DNA from: Pseudogymnoascus verrucosus
Lineage: Eukaryota
Direction: 5' to 3' (one strand)
Length of the DNA stretch: 64,000 bases
Assembly: GCA_001662655.1 (NCBI GenBank)
Contig: KV460218.1
The notes beneath the pieces are model-generated. The model did no database searches. It had not been told where the DNA came from and saw only the letters and a program-made list of their open reading frames with translations. The translations under genes were made by a program, and so were the position numbers. Numbering within the stretch: position 1 is the first letter of the stretch; every line of letters begins with the position of its first letter. Below are positions 1 through 35,646 of the stretch, piece after piece.

Positions 1-183
1 CCGCCGAAAGAAGGCCTGCAGTTTTTAAATCTGTTATTTAATCATACCTACTTTGACCACCTTAATTTCTTGCCGTGACATGGAAGCTGAAATGATAATC
101 AGCCATCCTCCCACCACCGCCCTCAAACCATCTACTTTCACACAGAACATCTATATTTAGTCCCCGACATACACATGACTATC

Positions 184-244
184 AAATACGACCATAGACT
201 CAAGAGAATTGGGCATCCCGTCCGCTCTGCCATACACAAGCTTG
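184..244 (+). rRNA. 5S rRNA gene, 5' half only (copy 1), interrupted after CAAGCTTG
   Basis: AAATACGACCATAGACTCAAGAGAATTGGGCATCCCGTCCGCTCTGCCATACACAAGCTTG matches nt 1-61 of fungal 5S rRNA; similarity stops at CAAGCTTG and an element left-end module follows. Confidence 0.85.
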
Positions 245-420
245 TAATCTACTCGCTCTATACTCTCAATCGTGCCAATAGGCATAGCGTGGAATTTGGG
301 CCCCTTGCCGCTTTGAAGGGTAAAGCGAAGGGTGAGCAGGGTGAGCAGTGCGTGAGCAGGGTGAGCATAATGGGGCGAAGTGAACTTTTCGTGTCATTTT
401 CGCGTTACTTTCGCGTTAGA
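245..420 (+). mobile_element. Element left-end module L1 (conserved end motif, GGGTGAGCA array, TTCGCGT repeats)
   Basis: Shares CTCTCAATCGTGCCAATAGGCATAGCGTGGAAT...CCCCTTGCCGC and the GGGTGAGCA tandem array (330-367) with 6000-6194 and, in part, 11725-11897. Confidence 0.75.
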
Positions 421-1847
421 CTGAAGTTTAGCCCTTAGTTTAAAACACCATGTAAGGCATTGCTCTCTTAACCTTTCCCAAGGTGATTCGTCATTGACCG
501 AGCCACGAAAGTAGAGACTCTACGCTTAGCTCGCTCTCACAAAAGTTGTGATCGGCGATTAGCTTGTTGCGGAAGATATTCACAGAGAGGAATAAGAGGC
601 TTCAAGAATTGAACCTACTTACCGCTTCAAATACAACGAGGGAGACATTTCTTACAAGTCCCCATCAATAGACTCGACAAATCTCGGTCATTCTCCTAGC
701 CAAGTGTAACTTCACACGCAACAAACCACATCAACGGTCTCTCGATCTGCTGGAATATTGTTATTCCGTAGCCGCTAATGCGTGGCTATCACATCTCATC
801 ACGAGCGTGAAGAAAACGTGGACTCCAACTATTGGAGCAATTGGAGCCTATGATGAGGAGGTAATACTAGCTATCTCATTACCATGTGGTCCTCTGTTCG
901 TTGGAGCTACGCCATCGTATCACCACCTATGCCGCGCCAACAACGCTCTCTCAAGTCTGACTCGATTCAGTTCTGGGTGGTCTTCATCGAAGAGACTTAG
1001 GTTCCCAGCCCACGGGGAGGTACGAGTCGTCGCAGGCCTACAACGATTAGGCCGTACACTGTAGACATGTGCAATGGACCTAATGACACATGCCTTCGCC
1101 CGCTTCGCTTGGGGGGCGCCGGCGTTGACAGGAGTGCCAGATTTGCCAAAGCGGATAATGCGTAGCGCCTAAATCCCCTAGTTTATACTAGCGGTGCGAA
1201 CCGAAGTCCTACCTTAAGCGGTTACACTCTGCAGGTGCAGCTGAGGGTGGATCGCCGCTGTCGATAAAGTGACTTGCGCAAGTCTCCGCGCGCCTGCCAC
1301 TTGTGGCGTCCTCCTTGTGGTTGGTGTGGTATGATGATTTTGGGGGTTACACAGCAGGAACACGTGCCAGACAACGTCAAAAATCATCGTGGCGAACAAC
1401 AAAATTGAATCTTTTGTTTCTAAGCCTTCCTTCAGCCATCAAGCAGCCTTGCGCCCGCAATCTGATATAGTTGGATTTACCTTCTTGAGCCAGAAAGCAA
1501 GGTTTCGAGGACCAGCTTAATAATCAGATCAAGATTTCCGATCCCGACAATACTCAACGATCGAAGGCCAGCCTTAAAGTATCTATGAGCCTATTCCAGC
1601 TGGTGATCCGAAGCATCAAAATAGGAAAAGATTAATGATAGTTGGCTAGTCTCGCTAAGAAGAAGAGCTGTCTGGCACCATTGCCCACGAGTCTGTTAGT
1701 ATGTAGGATTCGCAAACCCTTATTAATGGAAACACTGCCAAAGGCCCTATCACTAACTATCCCAACATGTTCGCTGTCCCGAAGTCAACTAGCTAAGAAT
1801 ATCAAGGACTAGCCCTTGCTAGACAGCCAGATTGTCCAGTCGTTAGG

Positions 1848-2489
1848 ATGAACCACAATGGCCCAGATAATTATGTTAGAAACCACGCATTGCAGGACTA
1901 CCAGATGCACTTGATGTTGCTTGAGCAGCAAAAGAAAAGAAGATTATTAATGGCAAAAGAAGCTCTTAAAGAGCAAGATACTGCGCTACAGACAATTACT
2001 TCGGTACTGAATCAGCTTAACATCGTACATATCTCTGTCAAAGAGTTGCTAGCAAATCTTCCCACTTATTTTCAAAATATTGAAGATTTCAAGTCATCCA
2101 TTCCCCGAGATATCAAGACTCTACAAGGCTATGAAGAGAAGCTCGATGAGAAGGAAGCCGAAATCAAAGCTTTAGAGAACAGGTACAACGAGCTGATTCA
2201 CATGACGCCAGAAGCCCAGCAAGGAGAGCTACGGCAGGTCAGGGATAAGGCCATGCTCACAATGCAACAAGATCGGGAAGAATTGACGCGAGATAGAGAC
2301 AATACTGTTGAAAAGATAGAAGAAAGGAATGGACGGATTGAAGGGTTGGGGGTGGCGTTGGGGAGGTCCAGGGAGTTGATGCCAGAGCTGATTGAAGACC
2401 TGAAGAAATTGGCTCCGAAATTGCGTGATGTGCAAATGGACAATTCTAATGATAGCACCGGAACGATTAGAGATACCCATAGAGGTTAG
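1848..2489 (+). CDS. Coiled-coil protein with an N-terminal Som1/Flo8-type 'ALQDYQMxLMLLEQQ.K.RL' motif (upstream exons possible)
   Basis: 213-aa ORF; motif NHALQDYQMHLMLLEQQKKRRLLMA followed by heptad-rich charged sequence. Confidence 0.55.
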   Translation: MNHNGPDNYVRNHALQDYQMHLMLLEQQKKRRLLMAKEALKEQDTALQTITSVLNQLNIVHISVKELLANLPTYFQNIEDFKSSIPRDIKTLQGYEEKLDEKEAEIKALENRYNELIHMTPEAQQGELRQVRDKAMLTMQQDREELTRDRDNTVEKIEERNGRIEGLGVALGRSRELMPELIEDLKKLAPKLRDVQMDNSNDSTGTIRDTHRG

Positions 2490-2739
2490 CATGTATTGTG
2501 GCGTTGCTGTGTACGTATTGAGTATCTAACCTTACGAAGAGAGGCATAATTGAGAACCATTTCTCTTTCTATAATTCCCTTGCTAGTCGGAGCAGCGTTT
2601 ATTTGTCTGTATATAACTTCTGTCGCTCCTTATACTGGACTGAGTGTCTGTCAGATGTATCAGGCATATTTGCCGTTGTCTCCTTTATGCGCATATCGAG
2701 CTCTCTGATTTCAGGTCGTGTTTACGCCATGAAAACGTT

Positions 2740-2990
2740 GGCTGAGACACCTTCTAAGCATCTTGCAGTAGCCGCTCTATCTGTTCTAGGCCATTGCAAA
2801 GCATTAGGCATGGAGGTTCTTAGACAGATGGATTATGGAGTATTGAGGGTTGGAATTGCAGATGTCGCATGTGTTGCAACTCGTCGTGTTGGAATACCAG
2901 CAAGCACACCTCCTCTTATATGACGAGCTGATGTTCACGGCGAGGGATATGATCCCGATGCAGTCGTGGAGGTTGAAGGACGACCTCGTC
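2740..2990 (+). pseudogene. Possible decayed fragment of a fungal RecQ-like (DUF3505-associated) helicase gene
   Basis: Disrupted reading ILQ*PLYLF...AIAKH*AWRFLDRWIMEY*GLELQMSHVLQLVVLEYQQAHLLLYDELMF...MQSWRLKDDL resembles my recollection of this family; stops are compatible with TGG>TAG, CAG>TAG and CGA>TGA changes. Confidence 0.35.
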
Positions 2991-3501
2991 GTCTCCAATG
3001 GCACAGCCATTGTCGGTCAACATACCTCGGTATGTCGTATCATGTTGGAACCCACATAGCTCTGCCTCAAAAATGATCACTCACATGTAACTCCAATGGA
3101 AATACGAATCTCATTGTGGGTCTGCCGGACGTAGCGTTGTTTGAACGGATAAAACGACAGAACCTCCACGTTATCAAGGACGGGGGTGAGGTAGGAAATG
3201 ACATATCTACGACAGAATGGAATTAATGTCCGCCACAAGAGTACCTAAACTTAATCCGATGACCCCCCCTTTCGTTAAGTCCCCGACTTTATCTCAAATA
3301 TTTAGATATAACAATCAAGCGATGGGGCAGAACTCAAGCCACCCAATAGCGACGCAGGCACTTGGAATAGGAAGTATCGTATTCACTAAACGCTCAGAAG
3401 GAGCTGTCGGGGCTAAATATCCCCTGTTAAAATAATCACGCAGGCTACCCGTAGTCGCGCTGTGGTTGAACGAAAGTTAAGATACCCTAGCCGCGATAGT
3501 C

Positions 3502-5076
3502 CTATTCACAGGAATAAACATATACAGTACGTTGTGGATGAGCTTTGATGCTAGGGCGAGCAGTGGATGTCATGAGAGTCGTATGTGCATCGCCCATCGG
3601 AATTGTGTCACTTGGAAAAAGGATGACAGAATCCGTCGCTGCGGTAAACACAATATCTGAAGAAAAGTGACCGATAGAAGATTCGTTGTTGGGAGCAATA
3701 GTTGAAATAGTCGATATAATAAAGGATGATGGACTGGGTGTAAGATCGCTCGCAGATGCAGAGGCAGCACTAGTAGGCAGCACAGGAGTGGTAGACGTAG
3801 TGGACGTGCTAGAAATATCAGAAACATCATCGGTATCGCGATGATAAAGCAATGAGCCCCAACCAAGCCCATCATAATGGCCCGAACCCTCGCCCCAAGA
3901 TCCGGCACCGCCTTCAAAGCCGCCCATTGATCTCACGGTATAATTCTTGTATTGTTCTGTCCAAGGCGCATCGACTCCTTTGATCTGGGCGTAATGGGCG
4001 TATAGTAACTCCCACGTTGGCCTATAGGCTCCACGAGACGCACTGCTGATCTCGGAATATGACACGATACCATTGGTATAAGGCACAAATGGCACCTCGT
4101 TGCCTAGGTTATATCGTGCATAGTATTCAGCTCTGTTACAATGTCAGTCGAGTTCTAGATTCTTCCTCGGTGTAACTTGGCCGAAGACGTACCCGAGAAG
4201 AATACGACTGTTATTGTAGCTGTACAGATCCACGCCTTGGTTCCAGGCCTGTTGTGCAATGACGCCAAGCATCTGGAAATCCAATCCCGAATGGCCTTGA
4301 TCGCGACCAGATTCTTGGCCTTGTCCAATTTTTTTCCCGGTTCCGGGCTCGTCAACAATGTCCGTAATACAGTTGTTGATTGCACCATTACCAATCCCAT
4401 TCTTGAAATATTCAACCGCAAAATCAAACAGGGTCGAGTTGTCTGTGAGTACTCCAAAGGCCATAACTGAAGCCATATTGCAAAGTTCCCAATTGGCAAA
4501 GAAATGTCGGACGTTGTGTTCCGAAGGGGCTTTATGATTGAGAAAGTATAGGTTCTTGGCTAGAAAAGTCCTGGAAAACATGTTGGCAAAAGTTTGCATC
4601 TCGCTCTCAGCGAAAGGCGCGTAGTCCCGGATCAGCTCGGCAGCATTGGCCAGCTCATGACCTTGTAGGCCAGCCGTTAGGTATTCGTCGTCCCCAATGT
4701 CAAAGTTCTCCAGAGTCTCTCCCCAGGCGACAAGGATGGCAGCTGCGGCTTTTGCATATTGTTCATCGCCCTCGATTTTCCAACGCAATCCGAGGGCAAA
4801 GGCTGCGGCGGCATCATGCCAGAGGAGCTGAGCATTTGCTATAGCACCGTTTGCAGTGTCACGATAGACGCCCGGCACAGCATTATTTGTATAGGTAGAC
4901 TGAGAATACACCAGACCAGTGAGTTTGACCCACGAGCTCTGCCAAGGGTCTAGCTGTGCAGCAAGCTTCGACTTTATGCGAGTGATGTCTGCATTGTTAA
5001 CCAAGAGCCCGGGATGAACGAAGGCAGATATCAAAGGCAGGAGACCGATGAGTTGTGAAATAAAGATTGAACGCAT
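3502..5076 (-). CDS. Secreted alginate-lyase-family (alpha/alpha toroid, chondroitin AC/alginate lyase-like) protein with Ser/Thr-rich tail; 2 exons
   Basis: Signal peptide MRSIFISQLIGLLPLISA; FVHPGLL start; motifs FFANWELCNMAS and GQGQESGRDQGH; ORFs 4144-5076 and 3502-4095 joined by a GT..AG intron at about 4133-4190. Confidence 0.8.
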
Positions 5077-5938
5077 ATTGAACTACGGAATCAAATTAAG
5101 TTGCAAACGAGTGACCAAATCGAGAGATAAATTGAGGAATAAGGCGCCGTTAAAGAGCGTGGTGAATTTGCGATTGAACAAAGAGAGGTGCAAAAGACTG
5201 GCATCAGAAGGTGAGTACTGGAGTGGCAACAGAACAGGCCTTAAGAAATTGCGTCGATAAATGGCTCCGGGAGCGATCTGCATGTGCAGTGACGCTTTCG
5301 GTAAAGTATATGACATTCCCTGAAATGATTGTTCCGTGTAACGGACCATCCTAAATGTTTCAAGAAGGAGGGTGAGGGACAGGACAGGACATTAGCAACT
5401 CGGTAGGTATGTTGGTCCTGCCAGGTGGGGGTTTCAGAAAGGTCCAGGGTCCAGGGTCCCGGGTCCAGGGTCCTAGCCCGACCCTCTGATAACAATCGAG
5501 GCGCCACGCTACCGTCTTGTTTGCTGCTCACTCAGAACCTAAAAGCAGCTAGCCATTGTTAAATGAGGGCCTAGATGAATGCATCACCGGGCTTCGGGGG
5601 AAATGCCGGACGTAAGAATGTCTAAGTCGAGCGGCGCGCGACGTGTTTCTAGTTGTGCGGCACTAGCAGAGAGAGGATGGAGCCGTTTTAATGACTGCCC
5701 GAGTAAGGCCAACCAAAAAGAATTCGTGGAAAAAACCTTGAAGTAACGGAATTTTTATTAAACGTACACCGGTATACGTATATTGTAACTCGCAACTGCA
5801 CGAATACGGGCTCCACCATACCGGAATCACAATGAAAGGAGACAGCGCAGAGCCTCATCGGGAGGGCATTGAAATTGTAAGGGCAGCCGCGACAGGCATC
5901 AAAACTTGCATATGTGGCTCAACATACAAGTAACTATC

Positions 5939-5999
5939 ACATACGACCATAGACTCAAGAGAATTGGGCATCCCGTCCGCTCTGCCATACACAAGCTTG
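5939..5999 (+). rRNA. 5S rRNA gene, 5' half (copy 2), interrupted at CAAGCTTG (5992-5999)
   Basis: ACATACGACCATAGACTCAAG...CATACACAAGCTTG; joining it to 11340-11397 gives a 119-nt 5S with helix I pairing ACATACGAC/GTTGTATGT. Confidence 0.9.
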
Positions 6000-6194
6000 T
6001 AGTTCAGTGGATTGATGCTCTCAATCGTGCCAATAGGCATAGCGTGGAATCTGTGCCCCTTGCCGCCTTAAGGGGTGAAGCGAGGGTGAGCAGGGTGAGC
6101 CAAGGGGTAAGCAGGGTGAGCAGGGTAAGTGGGGTGAGGCGACGTGACGTTTTCGCGTCAATTTCGTGTCAGTCTCGCGTCAATTTCGTAATAG
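6000..6194 (+). repeat. Element left-end module L2 (TIR, GGGTGAGCA array ~6073-6138, TTCGCGTCAA repeats)
   Basis: Highly similar to 11725-11897 and to 245-420. Confidence 0.8.
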
Positions 6195-6199
6195 TACTA

Positions 6200-6770
6200 G
6201 AGTGTGGCCGTTTTAGCTTAGTACCTTATTTAAGTGCCTTGTTCTTATTTTCTACAATCTACTACGTAGTAGCTACTTAAAGAGTAAGGGTTTCTATAAT
6301 ATATAAGTATATAAAGAAGCATAATATCTAACACTTTAATATTAGAGCTATAGTCTCTATAAAGGTGCCTTAAGAGAATAGAACCTTAACTAATAATAAG
6401 AGGATCTTTATATACATTCTAGAAGAGCCTTACCCTTATAGAGATTAGATTCTTACATACTCTAGTATTATATAACACCTTATACCTATATAATAACTTA
6501 GGGTTATAGAGTAAGCTCTATAGTCTAATATCCTAATTCTTCCTTCTATAAAGTAAGTAATACTAGGGCTTATAGCTAGAGAGGCTTTTATAAGTACATA
6601 GGTTAGAATATTATGCTAATATAAGGGTTAATGTAGTATAAAGAGGAGCTATTGTTATAAGGAAGCAAAGGAGTGTAGCGTATACTATTATAATGACAAC
6701 TATAACTATAGTAATTTATTAGGTCTAGCTACTCGTATAGAAATAGCTCTAGTTAAGAGGCTAAAGCGGA
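6200..6770. other. AT-rich, TpA-enriched, RIP-like degenerate segment
   Basis: Abrupt drop in GC, abundant TA/TAG/TAA, no ORFs. Confidence 0.65.
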
Positions 6771-7160
6771 AGCGGGCAAGAGCAGACACTACTGGAAATG
6801 TAGTATAGAGCAATCAATCTATTTACTATTCTATTATACTACTTTGCGAATGGGCCGGCCACTTAGCCAACTGGCCTACTTAGTGGCAGGGCTAGAACAT
6901 ATGTAACAGCTAGTTGCATTCGAGGGTGCAACTGCAGAAAAGGGAATCATTTATCTAACGAAGCACTCATATCACAGTTAATACGTTTGCAAGGAGTAGC
7001 TTTGCTAAGATGATTAGTCTCTCTCTACCCTCGATGTATTTATTATGCCCCTTCGTAAGAAACGTAAGCTATCTTTCATTCGACGACCCTGTGAGCGAGG
7101 GATTTCAGATGGTCACCGACACGTTTGGTATTGCTTCTATAGTGGGACTAAGACGGATAA

Positions 7161-7221
7161 ACATACAACCATAGACGCATTAGAATTAGGCATCCCGTCC
7201 GCCCTTCCATACACAAGCTAG
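7161..7221 (+). pseudogene. Degenerate 5S rRNA 5' half (copy 3)
   Basis: ACATACAACCATAGACGCATTAGAATTAGGCATCCCGTCCGCCCTTCCATACACAAGCTAG; same break point as copies 1 and 2, with several substitutions. Confidence 0.8.
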
Positions 7222-7290
7222 CAATTGATTGCTTCTTACTTGCTCTCAATTGTGTTAATAGGGTCAGCGTAGGATCTTGGCCCCTTGCTG
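7222..7290 (+). mobile_element. Degenerate element left end L3
   Basis: GCTCTCAATTGTGTTAATAGGGTCAGCGTAGGATCTTGGCCCCTTGC aligns to L2 GCTCTCAATCGTGCCAATAGGCATAGCGTGGAATCTGTGCCCCTTGC with several C>T and G>A changes. Confidence 0.65.
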
Positions 7291-7385
7291 AAGGTACCCT
7301 CTAATTGAGTCCCTCTCACAGTGCTCTAAGTGCAAGAGCTGGCAAGCCCAACTATTATCACGAAAGTTGAGTTTTAAGAAACACT

Positions 7386-9492
7386 TTACTGAGAGCGACG
7401 AGAATTAAGCCACCAATGTGACAATGCTGACAATAGACCCACCCCACCAGCGGCAATAATGAGATTATATCTATTTCCAAGTTAGCAATGCTTCCCTGAA
7501 GTCCCATACCGTGACATACATGCTCCCTATGACATCGATAATAACCGCGATAGCGAGTTCGCGATCTCCCCGGGACAGACCCGCCAATCCGTCTCCCGAG
7601 ATAATAGCCTTGATGTCCTCCAGCCCTAAGCGAGGCAACGCAGCCCCCAGACCCCGAAGGGACCTGTTTAGTAACACCATGTAGCTGATCCCCAGTGCGA
7701 CTAGGGCGCCCATCTCCTGCGCTAGCATAATGAAACCGACGCTCTGTGCCTGGGTGTCGGGTGCCGCGCCGGCAAGGCGTTGTGAGACGGAGAAGGAGAG
7801 CTGCTGGTAAAGGCCGGTGCCGAAGCCGATGAGAATAGAGTAGATGTAGATCCTAGTCGTGCCGCTGGGATTATTAACTGTAGCTGGGGCAGGGCGTCAG
7901 TACATGGTGCCTAATTGGGGTGTATGGAGTAGGCAGTGCGCTTACTGAGAAGGGTGCCGCCTATAAGAACCAGGGCTGCCCCTGTTAGGTAATATATGGA
8001 CGCTGGGATACGAGGGAACTTCGAGAGCGTGTAGCCGCTAAGTAGACAACTTGCTACCAGGAGTATAACTAGTGGCAGGAGTCGCACGCCAGCCATGATG
8101 GCGCTGTCACCCTAGTGTTCTTTAGCTTTGTAGGAAGTAAATGTGCAGGGGTGACCATACCCGTGTCAGCTGGAAGAATAGGGGCAGGTAGTAGATGGGA
8201 ATGAAGACGCCGGCCGAGGCGCAGGCTATGACTGTTAGCACAGTTGAAGCAGCACTTGCGGACTGTCGGTCTAGTTACCAGTAAGCAGGAACAAGATGAC
8301 CTGCCTAGCGGATCTCAGGTACGCGACTGGAAAAATGCGGTTGTTGGGCGAGGTGCATAGGGAGAGCCATTGCACAATGCAGAATGAACAGGAGAACATA
8401 AAAGCTAGCGCAAAGAGAGTGATGACCCTGCCGTGATCCCAAGGGTACGACACACCTCCAAGCGTAATTCCCATGAGAAATGTTGTTAGGGCGCCGCTCT
8501 GGAGAGCCCAACCTAGCCAGTCGATGCTCCAAAAGAGTGTCAGATAAGGTCTGCGGTGTGGTATTTCGGGGTCTTGAATGAGAAAGATGTAAGCTGGCAT
8601 CACCACCGCGCCAATGACCAGGTTGATGTAAAAGGCCTATTCTCAACATTAGAACTTACTAAAAAGCAATAGCGCTAAATATGGTTTCGATAAATATCAT
8701 ACCCATCTCCAAGTTGCAGAACTCGCGGCGAAGCCACCGCCGATGATGGGGCCGAGGACGGTTCCTGCACCCCATGACCACCCTGTCAAGGCGAAATACA
8801 TGGGCCTTTCATTCAAGGAGGTCATGGAGGTAATTAGGGCCATCACACCGAAATAGATACCCGTTCCCTAAACACTTTGATGTTAGTTCAAGAACCCAGA
8901 TCTGTGGGGGAAGTCAAGAAGATCACGTACACCTGCTCCAGCAATTGCCCTCCCAATGATCAACATGTCCATGCTAGTTGCAGCACCGCACAGGGCAGAG
9001 CCTAGCTCAAAGCAAAGCACAGTCTAACGGAAGCCGGTAAGTTAGCAAATATTTAAATAGCCTATAGCAAAAAACGCAATATCCATACCAAGACGAAAAG
9101 CCATTTCTGGCTTACGAGCGTGTAGAGCTTCGACCAGAGTAGTACAAATGCCGTTCCAGTCAGGACATATGCGTTTGGAATCCAACTGAGTTGGTCGATG
9201 GACTTGAATTGCTGGACAATGTGGGGCTGGATGTCGGCGACGATAGTGTTGTCGAGGGCATAGAGGAAGTTACCTACTATTAGGGAGGAGATTATCACGG
9301 CGAAACGGACCTTTGGTTGCGTGTTAGCGGTTTTTGTTGTAATTATGAGGTTTTTAGAGGGTTACGGACAGGTCCTGGCTTTTTGGTAGGCTCCTGTTCT
9401 TGGCTTTCCAGGCTGCGGTCTTCGTCTTCTGCTGAGTTTGCCATTTCTGATATAGTGTCCTGTTTTTCATGTCTAGCGGCGCTTCTTGACAT
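7386..9492 (-). CDS. MFS drug:H+ antiporter (DHA2/14-TM efflux pump), multi-exon
   Basis: Exons read FLYALDNTIVADIQPHIVQQF, LCFELGSALCGAATSMDMLIIGRAIAG, WGAGTVLGPIIGGGFA, IDWLGWAL, AGVRLLPL and YSILIGFGTGLYQQ, all typical of fungal DHA2 pumps; GT..AG introns with CTAAC-type branch sites. Confidence 0.85.
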
Positions 9493-9699
9493 TTATACAC
9501 ATGGTCTAGATGGAGTGAAGTGTTCATTTCCTAACTTTTGTTTGCCATTTTTTATTAGGTAGATGTTTTGTCAACACGCTAAGCTATACTATGAATTAGG
9601 GGAACTCAAAACCAGTTCTCACGACCTAGCACTTCTAGGCGCTTCTAAGCTTTAGGTGCCAAGCCTTTAATATAGATGGAAGGTTAGCATGCTAAGCAT

Positions 9700-9887
9700 T
9701 GTTGAGTCAACATTACGATGTTTTATGAAATTTAATTTTAAAGAAGAGTATGTTGAGTCAACATGGTGATAAGTAATGAGAACGTCGAAAATAAATATCC
9801 GCTAAATTAGTGTGCTGAGCTAATCCGACGAGACGTTTTGAATGGGTACTCATACTAGTTAGCCGATGTTGGCATGTTGAGTCAACA
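9700..9887. promoter_or_regulatory. Three palindromic TGTTGAGTCAACA (AP-1 core TGAGTCA) sites in the divergent promoter
   Basis: Exact copies at 9700-9712, 9751-9763 and 9875-9887; a partial copy TGTTTTGTCAACA lies at 9564-9576. Confidence 0.65.
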
Positions 9888-9960
9888 CGCACAACTTTCT
9901 TTCATCGAACATCATTTCCACGCGTTGCAACACAACTGTCTGAGATAGATAGAAATCGAC

Positions 9961-10915
9961 ATGAACAAGAAGATTACCATACCTACAGCTTTACTAGATA
10001 ACGGTATGTTCTGATTTGTGCTTGTAATATTACCGTTGTGATACCCATCCCTAACATGACACAACTTTAGTTAACCGTCGTCGAGAACAGCTTCGCCAAG
10101 GCCAGCGCGCTCACCGCGAACGCAAAAACAGACGGGTAAAGGATCTCGAAGCACGTGTTAAGGAACTAGAGGCAACCGTGTTGGATCTTGAAAGTCAGCT
10201 TCGATCAGCTCGTACCCTAGAATCCAGCCCGCATTCCCTTAGTGGTATCGTCACCAACGAGAACGTCGCTACTACCCCGCTGTCAACTTATATTCCCCCT
10301 CTGGACTTCGCAGCTCTAGGCGCAATAGAAACCTCTTGTTCTGAGCTCCCATCATTATGTTTATTAGGCGAGAGAGACGTTTCAATCCCCAACTATGACG
10401 TGTCCATGTCTTTGGCAGAGACGACAGAAGCTCAAGATGCACCAACAATACTAGCTACCCTTCCTACAGAGTCTCTAGCTCTTCATCAACGTCTTGAGTA
10501 CCGCACAGTCCAACGAACCTTAGAATACATCCTCACATACGACCTCGCGAGCCTCAACCGTGTGTTTATGTTCCACGTAAACGACCCCAGCATACGGCAT
10601 TCGTACATGCATCCCGAAGCCAGCGAGGCCAACAGACTACTCAGCACTGTTCTTCTACGAGGCTATTTTGCTTTCGAGTGGCCGCCCGTGATCATTCCGT
10701 TGGCGGAAGAGGCGTTAACCAAGCAGGGCAGCTATATGGATGCTCGTCAGGTGGAGAGCTATTTAACGACTTTCAAGGAGGCGTATCCCTTATGTCTGAG
10801 CCTACGAGCGGATGATTTTATAGCGAGTTTGTCTAGGCTAGCAGTGTGTTTTGGTTGGCACGGGCCGTACTTCACAGTTCAGGATGTGGTGGAGTGTGCT
10901 AGGAGGATTAGCTAG
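9961..10915 (+). CDS. bZIP transcription factor (Yap/AP-1-like basic region), 2 exons
   Basis: ATG at 9961, intron GTATGT..TTAG at 10004-10070, then NRRREQLRQGQRAHRERKNRRVKDLEARVKELEATVLDLESQL, in frame with ORF 10178-10915. Confidence 0.85.
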
Positions 10916-11060
10916 TGATGTGTAAATGGTAGTGTCACATGAAATATAATATGCTTATCATTCACGAAGAGCGGCTGTTCACTATAAATGGCTCCATACT
11001 TAAACCGGCTGTTTGCAAAATCTAGACATGGCGGGAGCGTGCCTTTTATACCATTTTCAA

Positions 11061-11331
11061 GCTCACCCTCGTTCACCCTCGCTAACCCTCGCTCACCCTG
11101 CTCACCTTCGCTCACCTAGGTACCGGATTATCCATGGCCATCTAAAGTCGCGGTGCATCGCGTTCATCGCGTTCATCGCGTCTTAATACAAGACCCACTT
11201 CGTGCGTGTCGACGTGGCCGCCATTAGGTAGCTGAGGGGGACAACCGGATTATCGTGAGGCATCAAAAACTTGAGGGCAGCGACGCTCACCCGCTAGTCT
11301 AAATGGCACCGTCCTGAGTATTAATCCACTT
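11061..11331 (-). repeat. Element right-end module (GCTCACCCT array 11061-11117, CATCGCGTT x3, ACCGGATTATC x2, TIR 11292-11330)
   Basis: Reverse complement of the left-end GGGTGAGC(A/G) array; the terminal 39 bp are an imperfect inverted match to 6006-6044. Confidence 0.75.
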
Positions 11332-11397
11332 CAAGCTTGAGATCGGTGGATTAGTAGTTGGGTGGGTGACCACCAGCGAATACCCACTGTTGTATGT
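11332..11397 (+). rRNA. 5S rRNA gene, 3' half, followed by a Pol III T-tract
   Basis: CAAGCTTGAGATCGGTGGATTAGTAGTTGGGTGGGTGACCACCAGCGAATACCCACTGTTGTATGT then TTTT. Confidence 0.9.
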
Positions 11398-11504
11398 TTT
11401 TGATTGTATTTTTTTTGCCATTTTTGTATGTTAAATTTTGGGGCCACTGACGCTTGACGTGTGCTTGGGAGAAAGGTGGGGGGACGGGGCTAGGTTGTTG
11501 TGTG

Positions 11505-11670
11505 TGGCCGCTACTCAATAAGGGCGCTAACGTCAACGCGCTCCAGTCAGCTTCGGCTCTAGGCCACAAGCAGGTTGTGAAGTTGCTTCTCGACAAGGGC
11601 GCTGAGGTCAACCAGCACGCAAGATGAGGAATATGATAGCGCGCCTAACGCAGCATTAGGAGGGCACAAC
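11505..11670 (+). pseudogene. Ankyrin-repeat fragment (NACHT-ANK-type repeats)
   Basis: Translates LLNKGANVNALQSASALGHKQVVKLLLDKGAEVN; no start codon and no flanking domains. Confidence 0.7.
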
Positions 11671-11724
11671 CGATTCTCAAGAACTGAGACCCCGTCTACA
11701 CTTCGAAGTCTTCGTATCTGAATG

Positions 11725-11897
11725 ATAGACATAGCGTGGAATCTGTGCCCCTTGCCGCCTTATGGGGTGAAGCGAGGGTGAGCATGGTAAGCAGGGTGAG
11801 CAGGGTAAGCACGGTGAGCAGAGTAAGCAGGGTGAGCGGGGTGAGGCGACGCAACATTCTCGTGTCAACTTCGTGACTCGCGTCAATCTCGTAATAG
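11725..11897 (+). mobile_element. Orphan element left-end module L4 (5'-truncated, no adjacent 5S half)
   Basis: ATAGACATAGCGTGGAATCTGTGCCCCTTGCCGCCTTATGGGGTGAAGCGAGGGTGAGCA... closely matches 6033-6194. Confidence 0.8.
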
Positions 11898-12269
11898 ATC
11901 CGTCGAAAGGTGTTGTCGCTAGCAATTCCCCATATCCCGACGTAGTCTTTTCAATTTCTACAGAGAAATTTATCTGCGACAAGAGGGAGCCATGGCGCCT
12001 GAATCTCCTCTGGGCGAGTCAGTGATCTCTGGACCTTTCAGCTTGTACGAGGGGAGTTTCATTTTAGAGTTTTTGGAGCCACATCCCTCGAGAGATGCAA
12101 CGTGAGTCGCAAAGCCAACAAAGCTAAGAACACCCGCTCAAAACTCTTTGCTAACCTTGATCTAGAGTTCTGATAAGAGCAACGTACAAACACGACCACC
12201 CTCTCTGCAAACAAGGCAAAGGTCATCCTCAGGTAGGTAGATACCTTAAGACGGATATCCTATCCCGTT

Positions 12270-12867
12270 TCCATGTGACATCCACCAACAAGAAATTCAG
12301 GCACCGCCTCTCCACCTCCATTTCAATCAATCAGAGACTTTCCAGGTCCTCCAAGGCCAAGTAGCCACCGTCGAGGGATGGTCTGTAACCACGAAGGTCT
12401 ATACCCGAGAGGACGGGCCGCATGAGATCAAGCCATGGGTACCTCATAGCTTTAACCCCGTGTCAGATAGCCCTGAAGATACCGTCCTGCTGGTCTGGGC
12501 GCACCCTGACGACGTCGATGAGATGATGGACAGAGTCTTCTTTACAAACTTGCTGATGTACGTCAGCGACGTGCATGAGAAGAAGGTTTCGCTAAACCCG
12601 TTCCAGATCATGCTAACCCAGTGAGTTCTCCCCTCGCCGAAATGCAAGATTAGGGCCTGAAAACTTACTCTTGCTAGGCATGTTTCTGCCACTGCCATGG
12701 TATGGTTTCCTACCGCGACGTGGCTGGGCCCGCTGCGCTGGTGGGTACCGTGGAAGGTGCAAGCCTTGTTTGCTGCGGCAGGGAGATTGATGGGGTTGAC
12801 CCCTATGATGAAGAGGTATACCTCGGATGAAGAGTTTGCAGAGATTCAGAAGACGAAGAGGACTTGA
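12270..12867 (+). pseudogene. Cupin-domain protein, 5' end missing or frameshifted; one intron
   Basis: QAPPLHLHFNQSETFQVLQG...HEIKPWVPHSF cupin motifs; intron GTGAGT..CTAG at about 12621-12677; stop at 12865-12867; no clear in-frame ATG. Confidence 0.6.
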
Positions 12868-13149
12868 AGGGTCGTTCTATGAAGGGTCGTTCTATACCTA
12901 AGAAAACGTGTCGATCCCGTAGATACATCGTTTGTAATTCCAGATTCTTGACGCTATGCAGGAGCTGGATTCCATCTTACATGCTTTACCTTTGAGTTTA
13001 TATTTCTATTTTATATAATGCTTCTAGATATGGTTCCATTGCAGTGTATTAGAGAAGTAGCAGGTACCGCTAGCGACATACTATCTATTTACAAGCGTCA
13101 CGGCGCCCATAGGTTACAACCTTCTCTCTTGTATTGTACTTATTGATCT

Positions 13150-13367
13150 TAGATTCCCATATACGGACTGGAGGTGCCATCGGCTCGAATCTTCAAAAGA
13201 CACAATGTCCAAAACTCACAGGTTCTGTGAATTCGAATTGTATTGCTGCATCGTTGCTACTCCATCTTACACCACAGTCATCAGCCTACATGGCTAACGT
13301 CTGGAAGTGGGTTGCTGACCATGACCTGGATATTAATACTCAAGATCAAATCTTAAACTTGGAGTAG
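13150..13367 (+). pseudogene. GH55 exo-beta-1,3-glucanase (pectin-lyase fold) fragment
   Basis: DSHIRTGGAIGSNLQ..CPK..CIAASLLLHLTPQSSAYMANVWKWVADHDLD is a characteristic GH55 C-terminal segment; isolated from the rest of the gene. Confidence 0.7.
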
Positions 13368-13507
13368 CTAGGACTAGTAGCACGTAGCACGTGGCACTAT
13401 GTTATTCATAGTTTCCTCAACTTCCCAATGGCCAAATGACTTGTTTACATGTGAGCCTAGATAAATATTAAGAAACAGATCTTGTTAATATTACACTAGG
13501 ACAATAC

Positions 13508-15060
13508 TTAAAATAATTCCATCTTCCTTAGAGGCATCCCCTCCTTATCCCAGGTTTCAGGAAGGAAATTCTCCCCAATGACCCCCAAACATGTACTAGT
13601 TTTAGAATTATAGATGTCATCAACAAGGGACGAGTCGACATCTAGAAGCTCTCTTGGAAAACGATCTGTTTTTCTTGTAGCAAATCTTGCGACCTCCTTT
13701 CGAGCTTCCTCGTGGCGAGATTTTATTTCTAAGGCCTGATTTTCTTGGCACCCACCTGCACCATAGGTAATGCGACGGTGGCTCTTTTCAACAAGTGCGC
13801 GAGTAATGACCATCTCTTCAAGTTTTGTAATATCGCGTACTAACGTGAAGAGCGTCTCAAAATGGGCCTGGATGAGAATCATATAGTTAAACCGCATTGT
13901 CTTCAGCGTCTTGCTATGCCGCCTGAGGAAGCTTTCTACGCTGTCAAGCGTGATAGTGCACCATTCCAGATCAATACTCTCCAATTGATCACTTGATATT
14001 GCATCCAAGATAGGAGAAAGTTCCAAGGGGGAAGTCTCCATGCTCTCCTTGGTATATATTCGTAGATGTCGCAAATGTGGAAGGCCACTAAGGAGCAAAG
14101 CGGCAAGGTTTTCGCGGTGGATATCGGTAAACCCAGGCCTATTCCAAGTCCTAGTTCGCATTGGAAGGGTTAGAGAAGAAAGGTTTCGAAGAGCGGGGAG
14201 AGATGCTTTAATGATGCTAGGGTCCAGTGTGGTAAAGTCGTCGACTTGGTAGAAGAATTCATTTTCTTTGAGTACTAGAGTAGAAAGGCTAGGAATCGTT
14301 GTTCTTGCTGCAGCTTGCAGAAACCTGTCGAGGGCACGGCCATTCTTGAAGGGATCTGGTTCTAAAATTTGAATTTTGACTATTGCGTTGACACTTGTCT
14401 TCCTAGCATATTCGCTCCAGTTGCACAACTGGACCTCAGTCAAACTAGTAAGCCTCTGGAGTAGCGCTGAAAGGATATCGATATCCGTCTTCTCATTGAT
14501 AAATTTGTTATACTCCTCAATGATTCGGCCATGTTCTTTGTATGCGCCAAACAGAGTCTCGGGTGTCCAGCCGAGCTGTTTAAGGCCGTCTGAAATCGCG
14601 GTCTCCGGAAAATCAGCCACAGTTGCACTCTGAAAGGCCTCACTAGTAATTGTTGAGCGGTCTACACCTCGGATAATACCTTGCGCGTAGCGAAATCCCG
14701 GTTGATGCTGAGCACTAAAAGTACTGAGGAATCCTCGTGGTTTTGGAGCTCCGGTTTGTAACATGCCATCCTGAATCAACAGAGTTGTCACATGCCGGCT
14801 GAGGCGAGCAGATTCCGAGATTGTGGCGAGTCTGATACATTGTTAAGAGGGTAATTGCAAGTATGATATAAGGGAGTAAGGGAGGTAGCGTACCTGTCAA
14901 GGTCTTCCGGGCCTAGCCAGAACGCGAGGCAAGAAAAGAACAGTGGTGTCACGCGGGCGTCAAGCTCCTTACACACAAGTGAGAGCGCTTTGAGGTCTGA
15001 AGTGGGAAGCTCTGAGAAGATTTGTTGAATGACTTCGTTTGGAAGTTTCTGGAAATACAT
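13508..15060 (-). CDS. F-box protein with LRR-like C-terminus; 2 exons
   Basis: MYFQKLPNEVIQQIFSELPTSDLKALSLVCK F-box; intron 14893-14832 (GTACGC..CAG) joins it in frame to the 427-aa ORF. Confidence 0.8.
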
Positions 15061-15263
15061 GTTCGTTGAGTTGTAGGTTATGGTTAACACTTGCTTGTGT
15101 TGAAGTGATGTCTCTTATTATATGGAAACACTCCTTAGCCATCCCTAGCCAAGAACTCTGCGTTTCGGGTAAGAGGAAAATGTACTATACTTCTTTCAGA
15201 CTAGTTTATTATCTACTAGCCTGTTGTTAATTGTGTATTAGTTACCTACCTAGGTAGGTCTCA

Positions 15264-16695
15264 TCATATAAAAAAGGCTTCCATATCTCGCTCCCTCTCC
15301 CCCATAAACTCAAACGCTTTCCACTCCATATTCTCCCCGTCCCCGCCCACAAGATCCTCAAACGCCCTAATGATTTCATCTTCCGGCCTCCAGTCCTCAC
15401 CAACTTGCCATGTGACTTTCCCTTTCCCATCTCCTTTAGGCGCATCGTATCTCACCCCCCATCGGAACAAAATGGTCTCCTTATCATCAATCGAAGGAGG
15501 CGCGTCATCACTCCCTTCATACTCTTGAGCCCGCTCTTCAGAGGGTCGCCAGGTAAGCCACGTGAACAGCTCAGCGTCTTGAAGGGAGGGCATCTTTTGT
15601 TGTTGGAGAGACGAGGCAAACGCTAAGAGCAAAGTGTTAATGCGCTCTGCAATAGGGAGCGTACGGAACATGTCAGGTTGGCGGTGGTCGTATATGTCCT
15701 CATCGCCCCTCTACCTTAAGGTGCTGCATTTGTGGCCATGATAAACCGTCACCACTAGAAGGGAAAAGATCTGGGGTGATGAGCGCGCAGATGTCTAGCT
15801 CCTCTAGGCGACTCCCTAGGTCCCGCAGCCCAAGAGACACAGGGTCTATGCCATCAAACTCGTTAGTCGATAACGGCGACGACAACGCTCTAACAAGGTC
15901 AGGCATCTGCGCCGCTTAGTCCGCCTCGTCCCCGCGGGGGTTAGGTGTCCAGAACCAGAGACGGACTTTAGTGAGGGAGGGTGGCAACAAGGGCATGACA
16001 TGGCACACACCCCGCCCGAACTCAGCGCGTTCATCGCGCCAAGGCCCTTCCTAAACGCGGGCAAATCTGCGTAGCGCCTGGGATGTGAAGGTAATGGGAA
16101 GGCGCTCCTATAGACAGGGGCAGTTCAGCTCGCGAAGGTGAGGGAGGCGGGTGGCGAGTTCGAGGAGCGTTCTCAAGGAGACAGGCCGCATGTTGGCCAT
16201 ATCCGAGGAGTAAGCTTGGTAGGGGACAACGCGTAGTTGGGTGCCGCGGTTTAATAGAGGTAGGCTATCCGGATTCTTAACGGTGAGGCGGCGGGTGTGG
16301 AAGGTACGGTGCCAGCAGTCTAGGTAGATGTCGAAAGACTGATCGACGATGCGGATGACGACAGGCTGAAGGTTTTCGTCTCGGCGAATAAGGTCCAGCT
16401 CGTCAGAGGACTGTTTGTCTGCCATGTCCTCGAGGATGTGCACTGCATTGAAAAAGGCATGCACTTGGGCTGAAAAGTGGGCGTTGACGGCCTTGAACTC
16501 GGCGACCGGCTCCCTGCACGCGAGGGGCGCGCTAGGTAGGTTGAGAAGCAGGGGCATTTCAGCGTCGAGATCGAACGAGTCCGTGCCGACGTAGAGGCGT
16601 GGTATGCGCGCGTTATAGGCGCGGATGCCTTCGAGGAGGGAGTTGAGGATGGCGTCTTGGGAGGGCGGCGTGGCTAGGATGTGTTGGGACGCCAT
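15264..16695 (-). pseudogene. Inactivated fungal hypothetical-protein gene (LRR/F-box-associated type)
   Basis: Reading frame continues through three in-frame stops (CPCL*ER, ARV*EGPW, EAD*AAQMPDL) consistent with TGG>TAG and CAA>TAA, plus a frame break near 15700. Confidence 0.7.
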
Positions 16696-17305
16696 CGTGA
16701 TTATCTCGGTACTCCGTACCGTCACGATGACTGACAGGTGTTATGTGATAGTATCTATTAGAGAGAAATTAGGTTGTGATTAAGTATGCAAAGGGAAGAA
16801 AGAGTCCCGGCTAAGATCAAGTTTACGCCAGCTGTAACTTATCTAATGGGACCCATTCTTAGAGTCCTAGCTAATATTAACACCACGTCTTTTGTCCCTC
16901 TGTGACACTATGTTCCCATAGCAACGGAAACGTTGTCAGGCCGTGGACTCGCTGTGGACCGGCAGATCATGTTAACGGTGAGAGCTGTGAGTGATGACAG
17001 TTTTGATCGGTGACAGTTGACTGGTGACAGCATTTGACCGGTGACAGCTTTTACCCAAACAAGATGACTTATGGACTGCACAATTAGTCCCACGAGCTCA
17101 CGTTCCGCCTCCTCCTCCTGACGCACCTGCTCGCAGAAAGCGTAGGCCTGATCGTACAAATCCTCAGGAATGCCGAACGCACAAAGGATCCAAACCAACA
17201 CCAGACATGTTATATATAGACCAGCACAGTTCCAACGATTCTATTCTCCAGTAAACCAGAATTATCTAGATTCACTCTCCCCTAACTAACCCCCCTCCAC
17301 CCCAC

Positions 17306-18067
17306 TCACTCCGCCTTCCCCCCCTCCGGCCACGTCAACACATACCCAAAAACCGTCTTCCTAACCTCCTCATCCCCCCTATCCTCCTCAAACATCACCC
17401 TCTCCATCTTCTCCTCCGACACCTTCTCCACCACCAACCCCGCCCCCCTCGCCCCCTCAAAAAACGCCATATCCGCCTCAAACAACCACGGTCTATACGG
17501 CGTGAAAAACACCAGCGCCTTCCCATCCCTCTTCAACATTTCCACAACACTCGCTATCAACTTCGCATGCTCGCTGTGGTTGAACAGTAAATCCGCCAAG
17601 ATCAAGATATCGAACTTCCCCCCTTCTTCCGCTGGCAGATGCGCGACCAACGGGCTCGAATCAGCACCCCAAAGGTACCCCTCTGCCACGACCTCCCCAG
17701 CACCCTCGCAATGCTCGATATTCCAGCGTAAATTCTCAATAAGGCTATTATCCGGATAATCCGTCACCACCACCCTTTTCGCGCCCAGCCTCCCAGCAAC
17801 AAGACTAGGCAGCCCCGCCCCAGCACCGAGCTCGAGAACAGTCTTCCCTGCGACGAGAGAGGGCGTGGTCTCGAGGTAGGTGGAAACGACGCGCGCGCCG
17901 TTCCAGAGGTGGTGGCCCCAGAGCGGGTTGTGCCCGACGAGGCGGAGGGTGAGGTCGCCGGCGGGGGTGGGGTAGGAGAGTGTGGTGGGTGGGGGGGAGG
18001 GGGGGTAGAAGTCGGGGGGGTCGGCGAAGAGGTCGTGGGTGTCGTCGCCTGAGTCGGAGGAGGGCAT
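17306..18067 (-). CDS. EFM7: Protein N-terminal/lysine methyltransferase (Efm7/Nnt1 family)
   Basis: LRLVGHNPLWGHHLWNGA, VLELGAGAGLPSL, VVVTDYPD, LADLLFNHSEH, FFTPYRPWL. Confidence 0.9.
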   Translation of the reverse strand: MPSSDSGDDTHDLFADPPDFYPPSPPPTTLSYPTPAGDLTLRLVGHNPLWGHHLWNGARVVSTYLETTPSLVAGKTVLELGAGAGLPSLVAGRLGAKRVVVTDYPDNSLIENLRWNIEHCEGAGEVVAEGYLWGADSSPLVAHLPAEEGGKFDILILADLLFNHSEHAKLIASVVEMLKRDGKALVFFTPYRPWLFEADMAFFEGARGAGLVVEKVSEEKMERVMFEEDRGDEEVRKTVFGYVLTWPEGGKAE

Positions 18068-33331: not shown

Positions 33332-35646
33332 ATGTCTCAACAACCTCCACCATCAGGATCGATGAAGATTTCAGCCACTGTTCCATTTGAGCAGTTGCGC
33401 GAGCTTCTAGCCTCGCCAGCAATAACCTCATCCGTTGGGAAAGCCCAAGACCTCATCAACATACAGCCACCTGACAAGGTGTGCACCGTGTGCGTGAACC
33501 TCGACCCGTTCCTAGCCTTCAAAAAAAGCAGTGCGGACCAGCACAAACTCTGGGCCGACAAAGAGTATAAAATTTCCAGCGGAAACCCATTCGGGAAAAT
33601 AACCATCGAAAAGTCGAAATACTTGCTTGATGCTGCGAAAGGTGGCTGCATTTATTGCACGATGGTTCAATCAGCACTCGGTGCTGTATCCCCGGGGTGG
33701 GAGACCGAAGGGTCATACATTCATATCTTCCTTGCGCTTGGCCTGCCCGTGGTCGTGCGGCTAGAGTTTGGCACGATTTCAAGCCTTCCTATCGAGAGGG
33801 AAGCTGCAGATGGTTTGTTCCAGATCGAGTTACCACAGGGCTTTGATTTGGATTTTGTTATCACTGTTGGCTCTGGTTCGGACGCTTCGAAAGCTTCGAA
33901 ACCTGCCATAGATGTTGAAATTTATCGGCCTCGACTCGCACCCGATCAGTCAATTGTTGGCGGTACGTCGTTCAATTATAGTAGGACCAAAGTTAGACAA
34001 GAGATTGCTAATGGAAATGGCTAGATGCTGTCTTGGCGGGACTTGTCCCCTTCGTGGGCTTTGCAGAAGAGATACCCCGACATGTTGGTGATAAAAGATG
34101 CCTTACCTTCATACAAAGTCAATTGTCCCACTGTCTCAACAATCAAAGTTGCTGGGCCCGCAAAGGCTTGCCTTTACTTCCAGATCGCGTCGTCTGGATC
34201 GAAGCCAACAATCCAAGTCGTATTCAGCTTATAGAACCCAAAGGCGTCCGTGCCATATATCTTGCACTCAGTTATTGCTGGGGGCCTGTGAGCTCTGACA
34301 CTTATCTGACAGATGCATCCACTTATGAGACTAGGAAAGCTGGTATACAGTTAGATGACCTACCGCCTCTTTTCCAAGACATCATTGCGTGTGCTCGTGC
34401 GCTTGGAATTCAATACATCTGGATTGATCGGTTGTGCATCATTCAAGGAAGCGATGCTGATTTCAAAACGCAGGCCCCAAAAATGGGAGAGATTTACGGA
34501 AATGCCACTGTGACCATAGCAGCCGCTTCTGCTAGTTCCGAACAGGACCGCATCATGGTGGAACGAGACAAGAAATGGGCTACTTCCAGCGTCAGCTTGA
34601 CTGTTAATGGAATTGGGGCCTTGAAGCTTCAATGTCGGAGGCGATCGCATCCTTTAGAAAAGGAGGACACAGGCGGTGACTATGGCAAGGTGTCCACTCG
34701 GGCATGGATCTGGCAGGAACGCCTCCTCGCTGAAAGAACGATATTCTTTACTCCTTCTGCCCTAAAATTCGAATGCCGGTGTCATTCCGTCTGGGAAGGT
34801 TTTGACCAGGGGATCTCAGGCCACTCATGGTCAGCGCAATTAGAAACTATATCACACAGCTCATGGACATTGTTAGTGGAGGAATTCACGAAAAGAGACA
34901 TCACTCGTCCTTCGGATCGGCTACCAGCCATGGAGTCTGTCATGAAGCGCATTGAAACGAAGACAAACTGGACGCCTCTTTGGGGTCTGTGGAAAAATAC
35001 ACTCATAAAGGGTCTAGCTTGGGAACCGCAGCCGTCTGGACACTGGGGAAGGCATGACTGCCGCATGAACCCTGGCCATTACGCTCCAACCTGGAGCTGG
35101 GCAAGCGTCGATGGCCCAATTTCCTACATCCATGCTAGACCTTTGGACATCATCTCCCAAATCGACCCCATTAGCTATGACCTAGAATATAGAAAGGTCA
35201 ATGCTGCTTCGGGTTCAATCACAGTGGCTGGCTACCTCGTTCCCGTCGAGCTCGGTGTTACTGTTAAGCGTGAAGAGCATGTTGAAGGAAACTCGGTCGA
35301 ACAGGAAGAATATACCTACGATTATAAGGTAAAAATCTCAAATAGCGAAGGTCTAAAAGATTCTACACTCAAGCCCGATGTCGCCTTGAAGCCGTGGAGC
35401 GGTGAGATCGGTGGGCAGCTGGTCTCGACTGTTGTACGAGTTCCATATGGAGAATCTCCTCCAAAAGCATCTTGGACTGGTACCTGCCACTGCTTATTAA
35501 TTGGTAAGACAAAGAGGCGATGCCTTGTCCTCTACCTGGGCCGCTCGTTACGGGAGCCAGGTGCCTGGGAACGGATTGGAATGGTGGATGGGATGTCACC
35601 AACAGTATTCTCGATGTCCCAAAGGGAAATCATTAATATTGCTTAA
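33332..35646 (+). CDS. HET-domain (TOL-like) protein; 2 exons
   Basis: YLALSYCWG, LGIQYIWIDRLCIIQ, MGEIYGNATVTIAA, TRAWIWQERLL, APTWSWAS; intron 33963-34024 joins the two ORFs in frame. Confidence 0.9.

Follow-up and report, generated by a model that had tools for sequence, protein, structure and literature searches.

Cargo-carrying elements that are site-specific for 5S ribosomal DNA (rDNA), as well as hotspots of their insertion, have been described in published work (PMC11162782, PMC9156397, PMC12153272). The systems closest to the locus analysed here are the 5S-targeting Starships (Enterprise family, e.g., Osiris of Aspergillus fumigatus; Voyager of Macrophomina), which insert site-specifically and in fixed orientation into the 5S coding region, are flanked by an 8-9-bp direct repeat derived from the 5S gene, end in short terminal inverted repeats (TIRs) and carry variable cargo; their insertions cluster in 5S-dense regions, and near-identical copies occur in diverged hosts. 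These traits recur in an element family found on contig KV460218.1 of Pseudogymnoascus verrucosus, of which one strand of a 64-kb stretch, termed “the window”, was analysed. In contrast to the Starships, which span tens to hundreds of kb and carry many cargo genes, the complete element of this locus (positions 6000-11331) comprises 5,332 nt and two cargo genes, and the captain tyrosine recombinase (DUF3435), the first gene at one end of a Starship, was not found among the open reading frames (ORFs) searched. The arms of the P. verrucosus element moreover contain tandem 9- and 11-mer arrays, and it harbours an internal fossil junction attributed to composite formation. We consider it rather probable (roughly 60%) that the locus represents a cluster of junctions of differing ages, which belong to a single 5S-specific element family and include one composite element mobilised in trans. 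Published Starship boundaries for the genus Pseudogymnoascus were not found in the literature.

A second known structure comes close to the individual junctions. In work of the 1980s on Aspergillus nidulans and by Rooney and Ward in 2005, 5S pseudogenes of filamentous fungi are said to consist of the 5' half of the gene joined to a conserved, unrelated block. The junctions described below show a similar design, with a 5S 5' half cut at one position and a conserved block of non-5S sequence behind it; here, in contrast, the block is one arm of a TIR-bounded insertion, which has a matching right arm and shares a single core sequence with the 5S gene.

The preliminary description of this DNA noted three 5S 5' halves broken at nt 61, and these were indeed recovered on the plus strand at 184-244 (J1), 5939-5999 (J2) and 7161-7221 (J3). 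Each comprises 5S nt 1-61 and ends with an 8-bp palindrome, the core CAAGCTTG (5S nt 54-61), which occupies 237-244 in J1. J2 is the 5' half of the gene that is split by the complete element; its core copy (5992-5999) is the left one, while the right copy (11332-11339) is followed on the same strand by 5S nt 62-119 (11340-11397). Thus, the core forms a direct repeat at both element boundaries, and it occurs once in contigs of the intact 5S gene. J1 and J2 differ at a single one of 61 positions, and J2 is identical (0 differences) to a 63-nt multi-copy 5S contig of another organism (run X4, see below). J3 is decayed, with 8 of 61 positions different from J2 and the core altered to CAAGCTAG. A fifth junction, L001, was found on a contig from a metagenome collection and comprises 30 nt of flank, 5S nt 1-61 and a left arm; accordingly, the same breakpoint is present in four independent junctions (J1, J2, J3 and L001).

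For comparison, Logan contigs of four sequencing runs (X2, X3, X4 and X19) were aligned to positions 1-18000 of the window at a minimum identity of 85%, and the arms were run by BLAST against all 64 kb. Contig cover in X4 is confined to 5932-11416. X3 lacks cover at 3001-5400 and ~13800-15000 and X19 at 7201-10800, where these runs provide no evidence either way; the X19 contigs end at 5958 and resume at 11376, a pattern which would fit an empty, intact 5S gene, with no locus-specific contig bridging it. Multi-copy contigs of X2, X3 and X19 contain the joint 236->11332, at which 8 letters fit both sides, so that the intact 5S gene equals the two halves with one common core. The 119 nt obtained by joining the halves are predicted to fold into a three-way junction. 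Contigs that join across the insertion site represent generic multi-copy 5S only. An Rfam scan of the window revealed no intact 5S gene even at E<=1, and the 5S halves in the window or in L001 yielded no Rfam match. BLAST over the 64 kb, as the preliminary description had it, detected just one right arm and one 5S 3' part, and no further copy of either. J1 and J2 are preceded by a similarity of ~17 nt, and loose contig ends that precede 5S in the other runs look alike. The similarity probably stems from a 5S promoter element common to both junctions; it does not count as evidence for a segmental duplication.

X19 also contains a second, high-depth 5S variant, in which CTCAAATCGGCAGTC replaces 15 letters from the core end through the GTGGATT motif (window 5996-11352), and which has neither the palindrome nor the arm motif. 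This variant could be a form that the element cannot use; a comparable case is Macrophomina, for which two variants of 5S are described (PMC9156397).

Each of the three 5S halves is followed by a homologous left arm, and a fourth, orphan arm lies downstream, in agreement with the preliminary description. The functional-looking arm L2 (6000-6254, plus strand) harbours a TIR of ~40 nt, a CCCCTT/AAGGGG hairpin, a 9-mer array (6073-6138) and an 11-mer array (6151-6188). L1 (245-416, plus strand) is 83% identical to L2 over 260 nt and contains ~4 copies of the 9-mer AGGGTGAGC (329-367) and ~3 copies of the 11-mer TTTCGCGTTAC (387-418). L3 (7222-7288, plus strand) is a stub without repeat arrays, whose homology to the other left arms ends at 7288, i.e., after ~67 nt. 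L4 (11725-11897, plus strand) lacks the first 33 nt of the arm as well as a 5S half. The hairpin, the tandem GGTGAGCAG-type 9-mers and ~3 copies of TTTCGCGTCAA characterize the left arms, and the 9-mer copy number varies between 4.1 (L1), 6.8 (L2) and 8.8 (L4). The stability of L2 folded as single-stranded DNA is unremarkable (z = -0.46). The right arm, R (11061-11331, minus strand), contains the same 9/10-mer GGTGAGC array as the left arms in inverted orientation (11061-11116), three copies of CGCGATGAA (11156-11181) and a TIR in its last ~40 nt. Homology among the copies stops at the arm ends and does not reach the cargo, and the DNA beyond is unrelated by BLAST; tandem segmental duplication, which the preliminary description had named as an outcome that would refute its reading, was therefore rejected. 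A 5S-derived short interspersed element or retropseudogene, which would consist of a 5S head, body and tail, show variable duplications at its dispersed copies and have no right arm, was likewise discarded, given the right arm with its inverted repeat, the 5S 3' part and the single shared 8-bp core.

The TIR is best seen between L2 and the reverse complement of R (score 21, reached by 2 of 300 shuffles), while the corresponding alignments to R are not significant for L1 (68/300 shuffles) or L3 (88/300). The motif GTGGATTA is found in both element termini and also 7 nt 3' of the core in the 5S gene. Between L2 and 5S nt 62-74, 11 of 13 positions agree (28/2000 shuffles); for R, the match to 5S is 10 of 11 (17/2000 shuffles). 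The first letters are TAGTT and then CAGTG in L2, and AAGTG in R read as its reverse complement. A 16-mer upstream of J2 that resembles R, AGGCATCAAAACTTG, scored marginally (5/300 shuffles) and was dropped.

A different arrangement of left arms occurs in X2 (11405->6020) and X3 (11401->6018), where a 5S 3' end is followed by ~33 T-rich letters and then by a left arm. These joints resemble the layout around L4, which suggests a recurrent second type of left-arm placement. Between the 5S 3' end and L4 (11500-11625), the plus strand resembles, as read by eye, an ankyrin-repeat fragment that ends in a stop.

L2 and R bound the sole complete element of the cluster, which lies inside one 5S gene and possesses imperfect TIRs, the 8-bp direct repeat and inverted subterminal arrays of 9-11-mers. 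Since the decayed J3/L3 junction is located within this element, the element is a composite made with a hybrid end pair, i.e., the left end of one insertion and the right end of another. The preliminary description had offered such a pair as one option, and the same unit is present in X4. Here, a single contig of 5,293 nt aligns to 5970-6092, 6132-6268 and 6954-11369 (30 different letters in the third stretch, 99.3% identity) and carries 577 unaligned letters in place of 6269-6953. The order on the contig is 5S 5' half, L2, J3, L3, cargo, R and 5S 3' half; it spans J3/L3 between two 5S halves and thus places this junction inside the mobile unit. The family is multi-copy, with 9 contigs at position 6109 in X2, 16 at 6561 in X3 and many on the left and right arms. 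X2 contains head-to-tail R-core-L joints, and X3 a short form that directly connects the two arms (joint 6220->11131).

The junctions of the cluster differ widely in age. X3, from a relative, differs from the window at 15 of 3,895 positions (0.4%) between 7170 and 11064, on a contig that reaches into J3. A contig of the same run that crosses L1 into segment 1 differs at 145 of ~2,440 positions (274-2717; ~6%), and another that crosses L4 into the downstream DNA at 94 of 1,290 (11822-13111; 7.3%). The flanks diverge to a similar extent, with 108 of 849 positions different at 15722-16570 (12.7%) and 11% divergence at 17320-18000. The flank-level divergence of L1/segment 1 and of L4 with its downstream DNA indicates that both junctions are old and vertically inherited, and J1/L1 and L4 would accordingly represent ancient solo left arms. 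As judged from divergence, the part from J3 to R is at least 15 times younger than these junctions, which argues that the stack consists of ancient solo arms plus one young element; the composite appears to have spread recently between diverged lineages.

These ages also bear on Russian-doll nesting, an idea raised in the preliminary description. In a strict version of it, three complete elements would have inserted one after another, each into a 5S gene situated within its predecessor, and a single deletion between the repeats formed by R and the 5S 3' half would then have removed the inner copies of both. Such a history would account for three 5' halves next to one R and one 3' half, and nesting of Starships as well as 5S-rich hotspots are published (PMC12153272, PMC9156397). 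Nesting predicts, however, that the innermost junction is the youngest, whereas J3 is the most decayed (8/61 differences, a broken core and a 67-nt stub) and J2 shows 0 differences from multi-copy 5S contigs; in X3, L1 and segment 1 are diverged like the flanks, while the stretch from J3 to R differs by 0.4%, and L1 lacks TIR similarity to R. With no further R or 3' half in the 64 kb, three complete nested elements find no counterpart in the window, and we regard this history as improbable.

The preliminary description also considered an integron-like accretion of cassettes at 5S sites. In such a process, which would equally resemble the growth of genomic islands, circles made of a 5S 5' half, a left arm and cargo would be added serially at one 5S site. 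Known systems offer partial parallels: in islands that accrete at bacterial tRNA genes, repeated partial target copies mark successive junctions, and in composite transposons the left end of one element and the right end of another move the intervening DNA. The present locus differs from both, as its host is a eukaryote, the piece repeated is the target's 5' half, the site has no integrase and its junctions are of unrelated ages. Integrons, which encode an integrase next to the attachment site and exchange cassettes singly, differ further, as neither property was encountered here. The repetition of “5S half, left arm, different cargo” in a single orientation and the head-to-tail joints in X2 would suit serial accretion, but no integrase was detected among the ORFs searched, the ages of the units are very different with two of them vertically inherited, J2, L2, J3 and L3 occur together on one X4 contig, and L3 and L4 are incomplete. 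There is no ordered series of cassettes either, and accretion of this type seems extremely improbable.

A further reading is an assembly artefact, in which units with generic 5S halves at their ends were misplaced into a 5S gene where they do not belong. In its favour, all Logan contigs break within the 5S halves (e.g., those of X2 and X19 end at 5958, others begin at 11376), and neither the connection of segment 1 with L2 nor that of R with the right flank is found on an independent contig. Against this stand the length of the repeats (58-61 nt, shorter than ordinary reads), the presence of every part at ~99.7% in X2, a separate data set, and the X4 contig, which spans the internal J3 junction as well as the link from the 5S half to L2. 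A misassembly is therefore deemed very improbable.

The formation of the composite may be envisaged as follows. An earlier element, made of L3, cargo and R, would have occupied a 5S gene and later been deprived of its left arm, as judged from the decay of J3 and the lack of repeat arrays in L3. L2, the left arm of an insertion upstream, would then have paired with R and rendered the older element mobile again, and the resulting L2-R composite would have taken the fossil J3/L3 junction along. Such a pairing accounts for the duplicated 5S 5' half and for the capture of host DNA. As no enzyme is encoded within the element, mobilisation would have occurred in trans.

Several observations weigh against the proposed cluster of 5S-specific junctions with a composite mobilised in trans. 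All contigs break in 5S halves of generic sequence. That the element sits in this particular 5S gene is therefore given by the source assembly alone, and the loci of the X3 and X4 copies are not independently confirmed. For X3, introgression at the same locus could account for the near-identity instead of transposition. TIR similarity and target mimicry each reach just modest significance, and the extreme termini are not alike among the copies. At 5.3 kb the element is far below published Starship sizes, and neither a captain (DUF3435) nor another recombinase was found beside L1, L2, L3, L4 or L001 (first 10 kb); with no captain next to five left arms, the link to Starships is indirect. Finally, subterminal arrays, arms of ~200-270 bp common to copies that are otherwise unrelated, short forms made of a left and a right arm and an 8-bp duplication constitute the classic anatomy of non-autonomous hAT or Mutator elements.

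The search for an encoded enzyme covered the window and L001. Pfam searches of 102 ORFs of at least 120 aa across the window revealed no recombinase, DUF3435 domain or transposase, 48 ORFs of at least 60 aa within 1-16.7 kb contained no recombinase or transposase, and the 19 ORFs of L001 none besides that of a nested Tc1/mariner element. The enzyme acting in trans may be a Starship-type tyrosine recombinase, to which we give even odds and which we favour over a DDE transposase; it would exchange strands within the core. This preference is based on the repeats of 5S-targeting Starships and of Osiris, on the target mimicry and on the tyrosine recombinase genes present in the genus. The direct repeats of 5S-targeting Starships are described as 6-16 bp long and derived from 5S at a minimum of five target sites, and Enterprise Starships target a palindrome (PMC11162782), while the repeat of Osiris is given as ttaagccac (PMC12153272, Table S3). 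The termini of the P. verrucosus element imitate the arm of their target, much like attP in relation to attB, and this likeness is counted in favour of a tyrosine recombinase. The Osiris repeat presumably lies at the position in the Aspergillus 5S gene that corresponds to the core described here. Genes for tyrosine recombinases are listed for Pseudogymnoascus genomes (PMC11162782, supplement), and among the rows listed in the supplements of PMC11162782 and PMC12153272 no direct repeat contains AAGCTTG.

A possible, if doubtful, alternative is a family of non-autonomous DDE-type TIR transposons, either hAT-like or target-specific in the manner of Dada elements, where a transposase that recognises the subterminal 9- and 11-mer arrays by binding would cleave at the TIRs and generate an 8-bp target-site duplication in 5S, and where the composite would likewise arise via a hybrid end pair. 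TIRs of hAT elements are short and start with YARNG. The size of the duplication (8 bp), the inverted motif arrays of the two arms, the restriction of homology among L1, L2, L4 and L001 to arms of ~200-270 bp, the short form in X3 and the small size of 5.3 kb are all in line with such a family. Non-autonomous hAT and Mutator elements, including Pack-MULE-like carriers, likewise combine an 8-bp duplication with TIRs and subterminal arrays, share their arms only, form short left-right versions and carry host genes between the arms; the present element differs from them by its strict confinement to a single 5S site, the palindromic duplicated site, the target-mimicking termini and the lack of a visible transposase. 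Dada elements are DDE transposons that are present in fungi and insert specifically at one position of a small-RNA gene with multiple copies, yet the duplications described for them measure 6-7 bp and the targets reported are U6, U1 and tRNA genes (PMC3706591); Pfam searches of the ORFs detected no Dada-like DDE domain within the element. Except for the nested element of L001, no transposase was seen among the ORFs searched in the window and L001, and a DDE mechanism offers no reason for the target motif GTGGATTA at both termini or for a fixed, palindromic duplicated site.

L001 itself illustrates the variability of the cargo. Its left arm is 88.5% identical to L2 over 323 nt, and past the arm follows unrelated DNA with a methyltransferase fragment, LysM genes and a GH18 chitinase in an element of at least 10 kb. 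The DDE ORF of L001, the only one seen, belongs to a Tc1/mariner-type element of 1.47 kb (1937-3404), which is bounded by its own perfect 37-bp TIRs and nested in the methyltransferase fragment. This element contains an open ORF of 456 aa (HTH_23/DDE_3) and looks young.

Between its arms, the complete P. verrucosus element contains an AT-rich multi-copy repeat and two genes in divergent orientation. The repeat (6255-6953) is covered by many contigs in X2, X3 and X19 and has a composition of the repeat-induced point mutation (RIP) type, with a GC content of 33%, a TpA/ApT ratio of 1.69 and a (CpA+TpG)/(ApC+GpT) ratio of 0.59. A RIP-tolerant purine/pyrimidine alignment of 6200-7160 with L001 scored no better than shuffled sequences (103 versus a shuffle median of 100). 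A multi-exon gene model (7474-9492, minus strand) is predicted to encode an MFS transporter similar to TRI12/DHA2 (MFS_1, E=1.9e-5; TRI12, E=0.0011; fragments across ORFs), and the last exon of a bZIP protein is found by Pfam at 10055-10915 on the plus strand. All 281 residues of the latter are identical to a protein filed under two other Pseudogymnoascus names; identity to additional homologues is 82-93%, and among the best matches those that carry names are all from Pseudogymnoascus. In two other named Pseudogymnoascus strains, a homologue of 91-93% identity is predicted as a fusion with FAD_binding_2 (PF00890), a hint that the bZIP cargo gene has another genomic context there, which is perhaps the original one.

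Compared with the published 5S-specific cargo elements, the locus adds a small, enzyme-less form whose defined arms, consisting of TIRs and subterminal arrays, delimit the requirements in cis, a fossil junction within a mobile unit that records how a hybrid end pair captures host DNA, and the genus Pseudogymnoascus as host of a 5S-targeting element. The transporter and regulator cassette shows 0.4% divergence in a relative whose flanks diverge by 6-13%. We tentatively propose, as a view that is more doubtful than probable, that small, enzyme-less, repeat-armed elements aimed at the 5S palindrome serve in Pseudogymnoascus as a functioning vehicle by which genes are captured and spread laterally, where the arms of neighbouring insertions move the DNA between them. 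If so, the J3 fossil in 6000-11331 would be a direct record of capture between neighbouring 5S insertions, and hybrid end pairs would be a general way for Starship-like elements to acquire cargo. Small exchanged fragments have been reported among Pseudogymnoascus lineages, and a vector was asked for (PMC4438637); elements of the type described here would be such a vector. Should the enzyme prove to be a Starship captain, the composite would represent a natural mini-Starship, useful to dissect the reaction, and would explain in concrete mechanistic terms how small fragments are exchanged between lineages of the genus.

The remainder of the window is fungal in character, with Pfam matches of its ORFs to tubulin, citrate synthase, HET, NLR-like WD40 and fungal lectin domains. 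Segment 1 (417-5921), which follows L1 and has no right arm, contains two ORFs, namely a coiled-coil ORF with a weak OmpH-like match (1797-2489, plus strand) and an alginate-lyase ORF (4144-5082, minus strand; Alginate_lyase, E=3.8e-18). Downstream of L4, a weak cupin match alone was obtained (E=0.029). Regarding the cargo named in the preliminary description, the lyase, the RIP-type debris, the MFS transporter and the bZIP protein are thus borne out, the coiled-coil and cupin labels are weak, and GH55 and F-box found no Pfam match in the ORFs tested. Segment 1 also harbours a small indel polymorphism, as 277 nt (762-1038) are missing from an otherwise 99.7% identical X2 contig (joint 761->1039).

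Genes for HET and NLR-like WD40 proteins are typical accessory genes of non-self recognition. In the window, a HET-domain ORF (34012-35646) and an NLR-like WD40 ORF of 1,366 aa (37651-41751) are located 20-30 kb from the junction array. Further downstream, the intergenic stretches 46133-46171 (39 nt) and 51752-51858 (~107 nt) contain long G runs and G-rich repeats of 32-38 nt.

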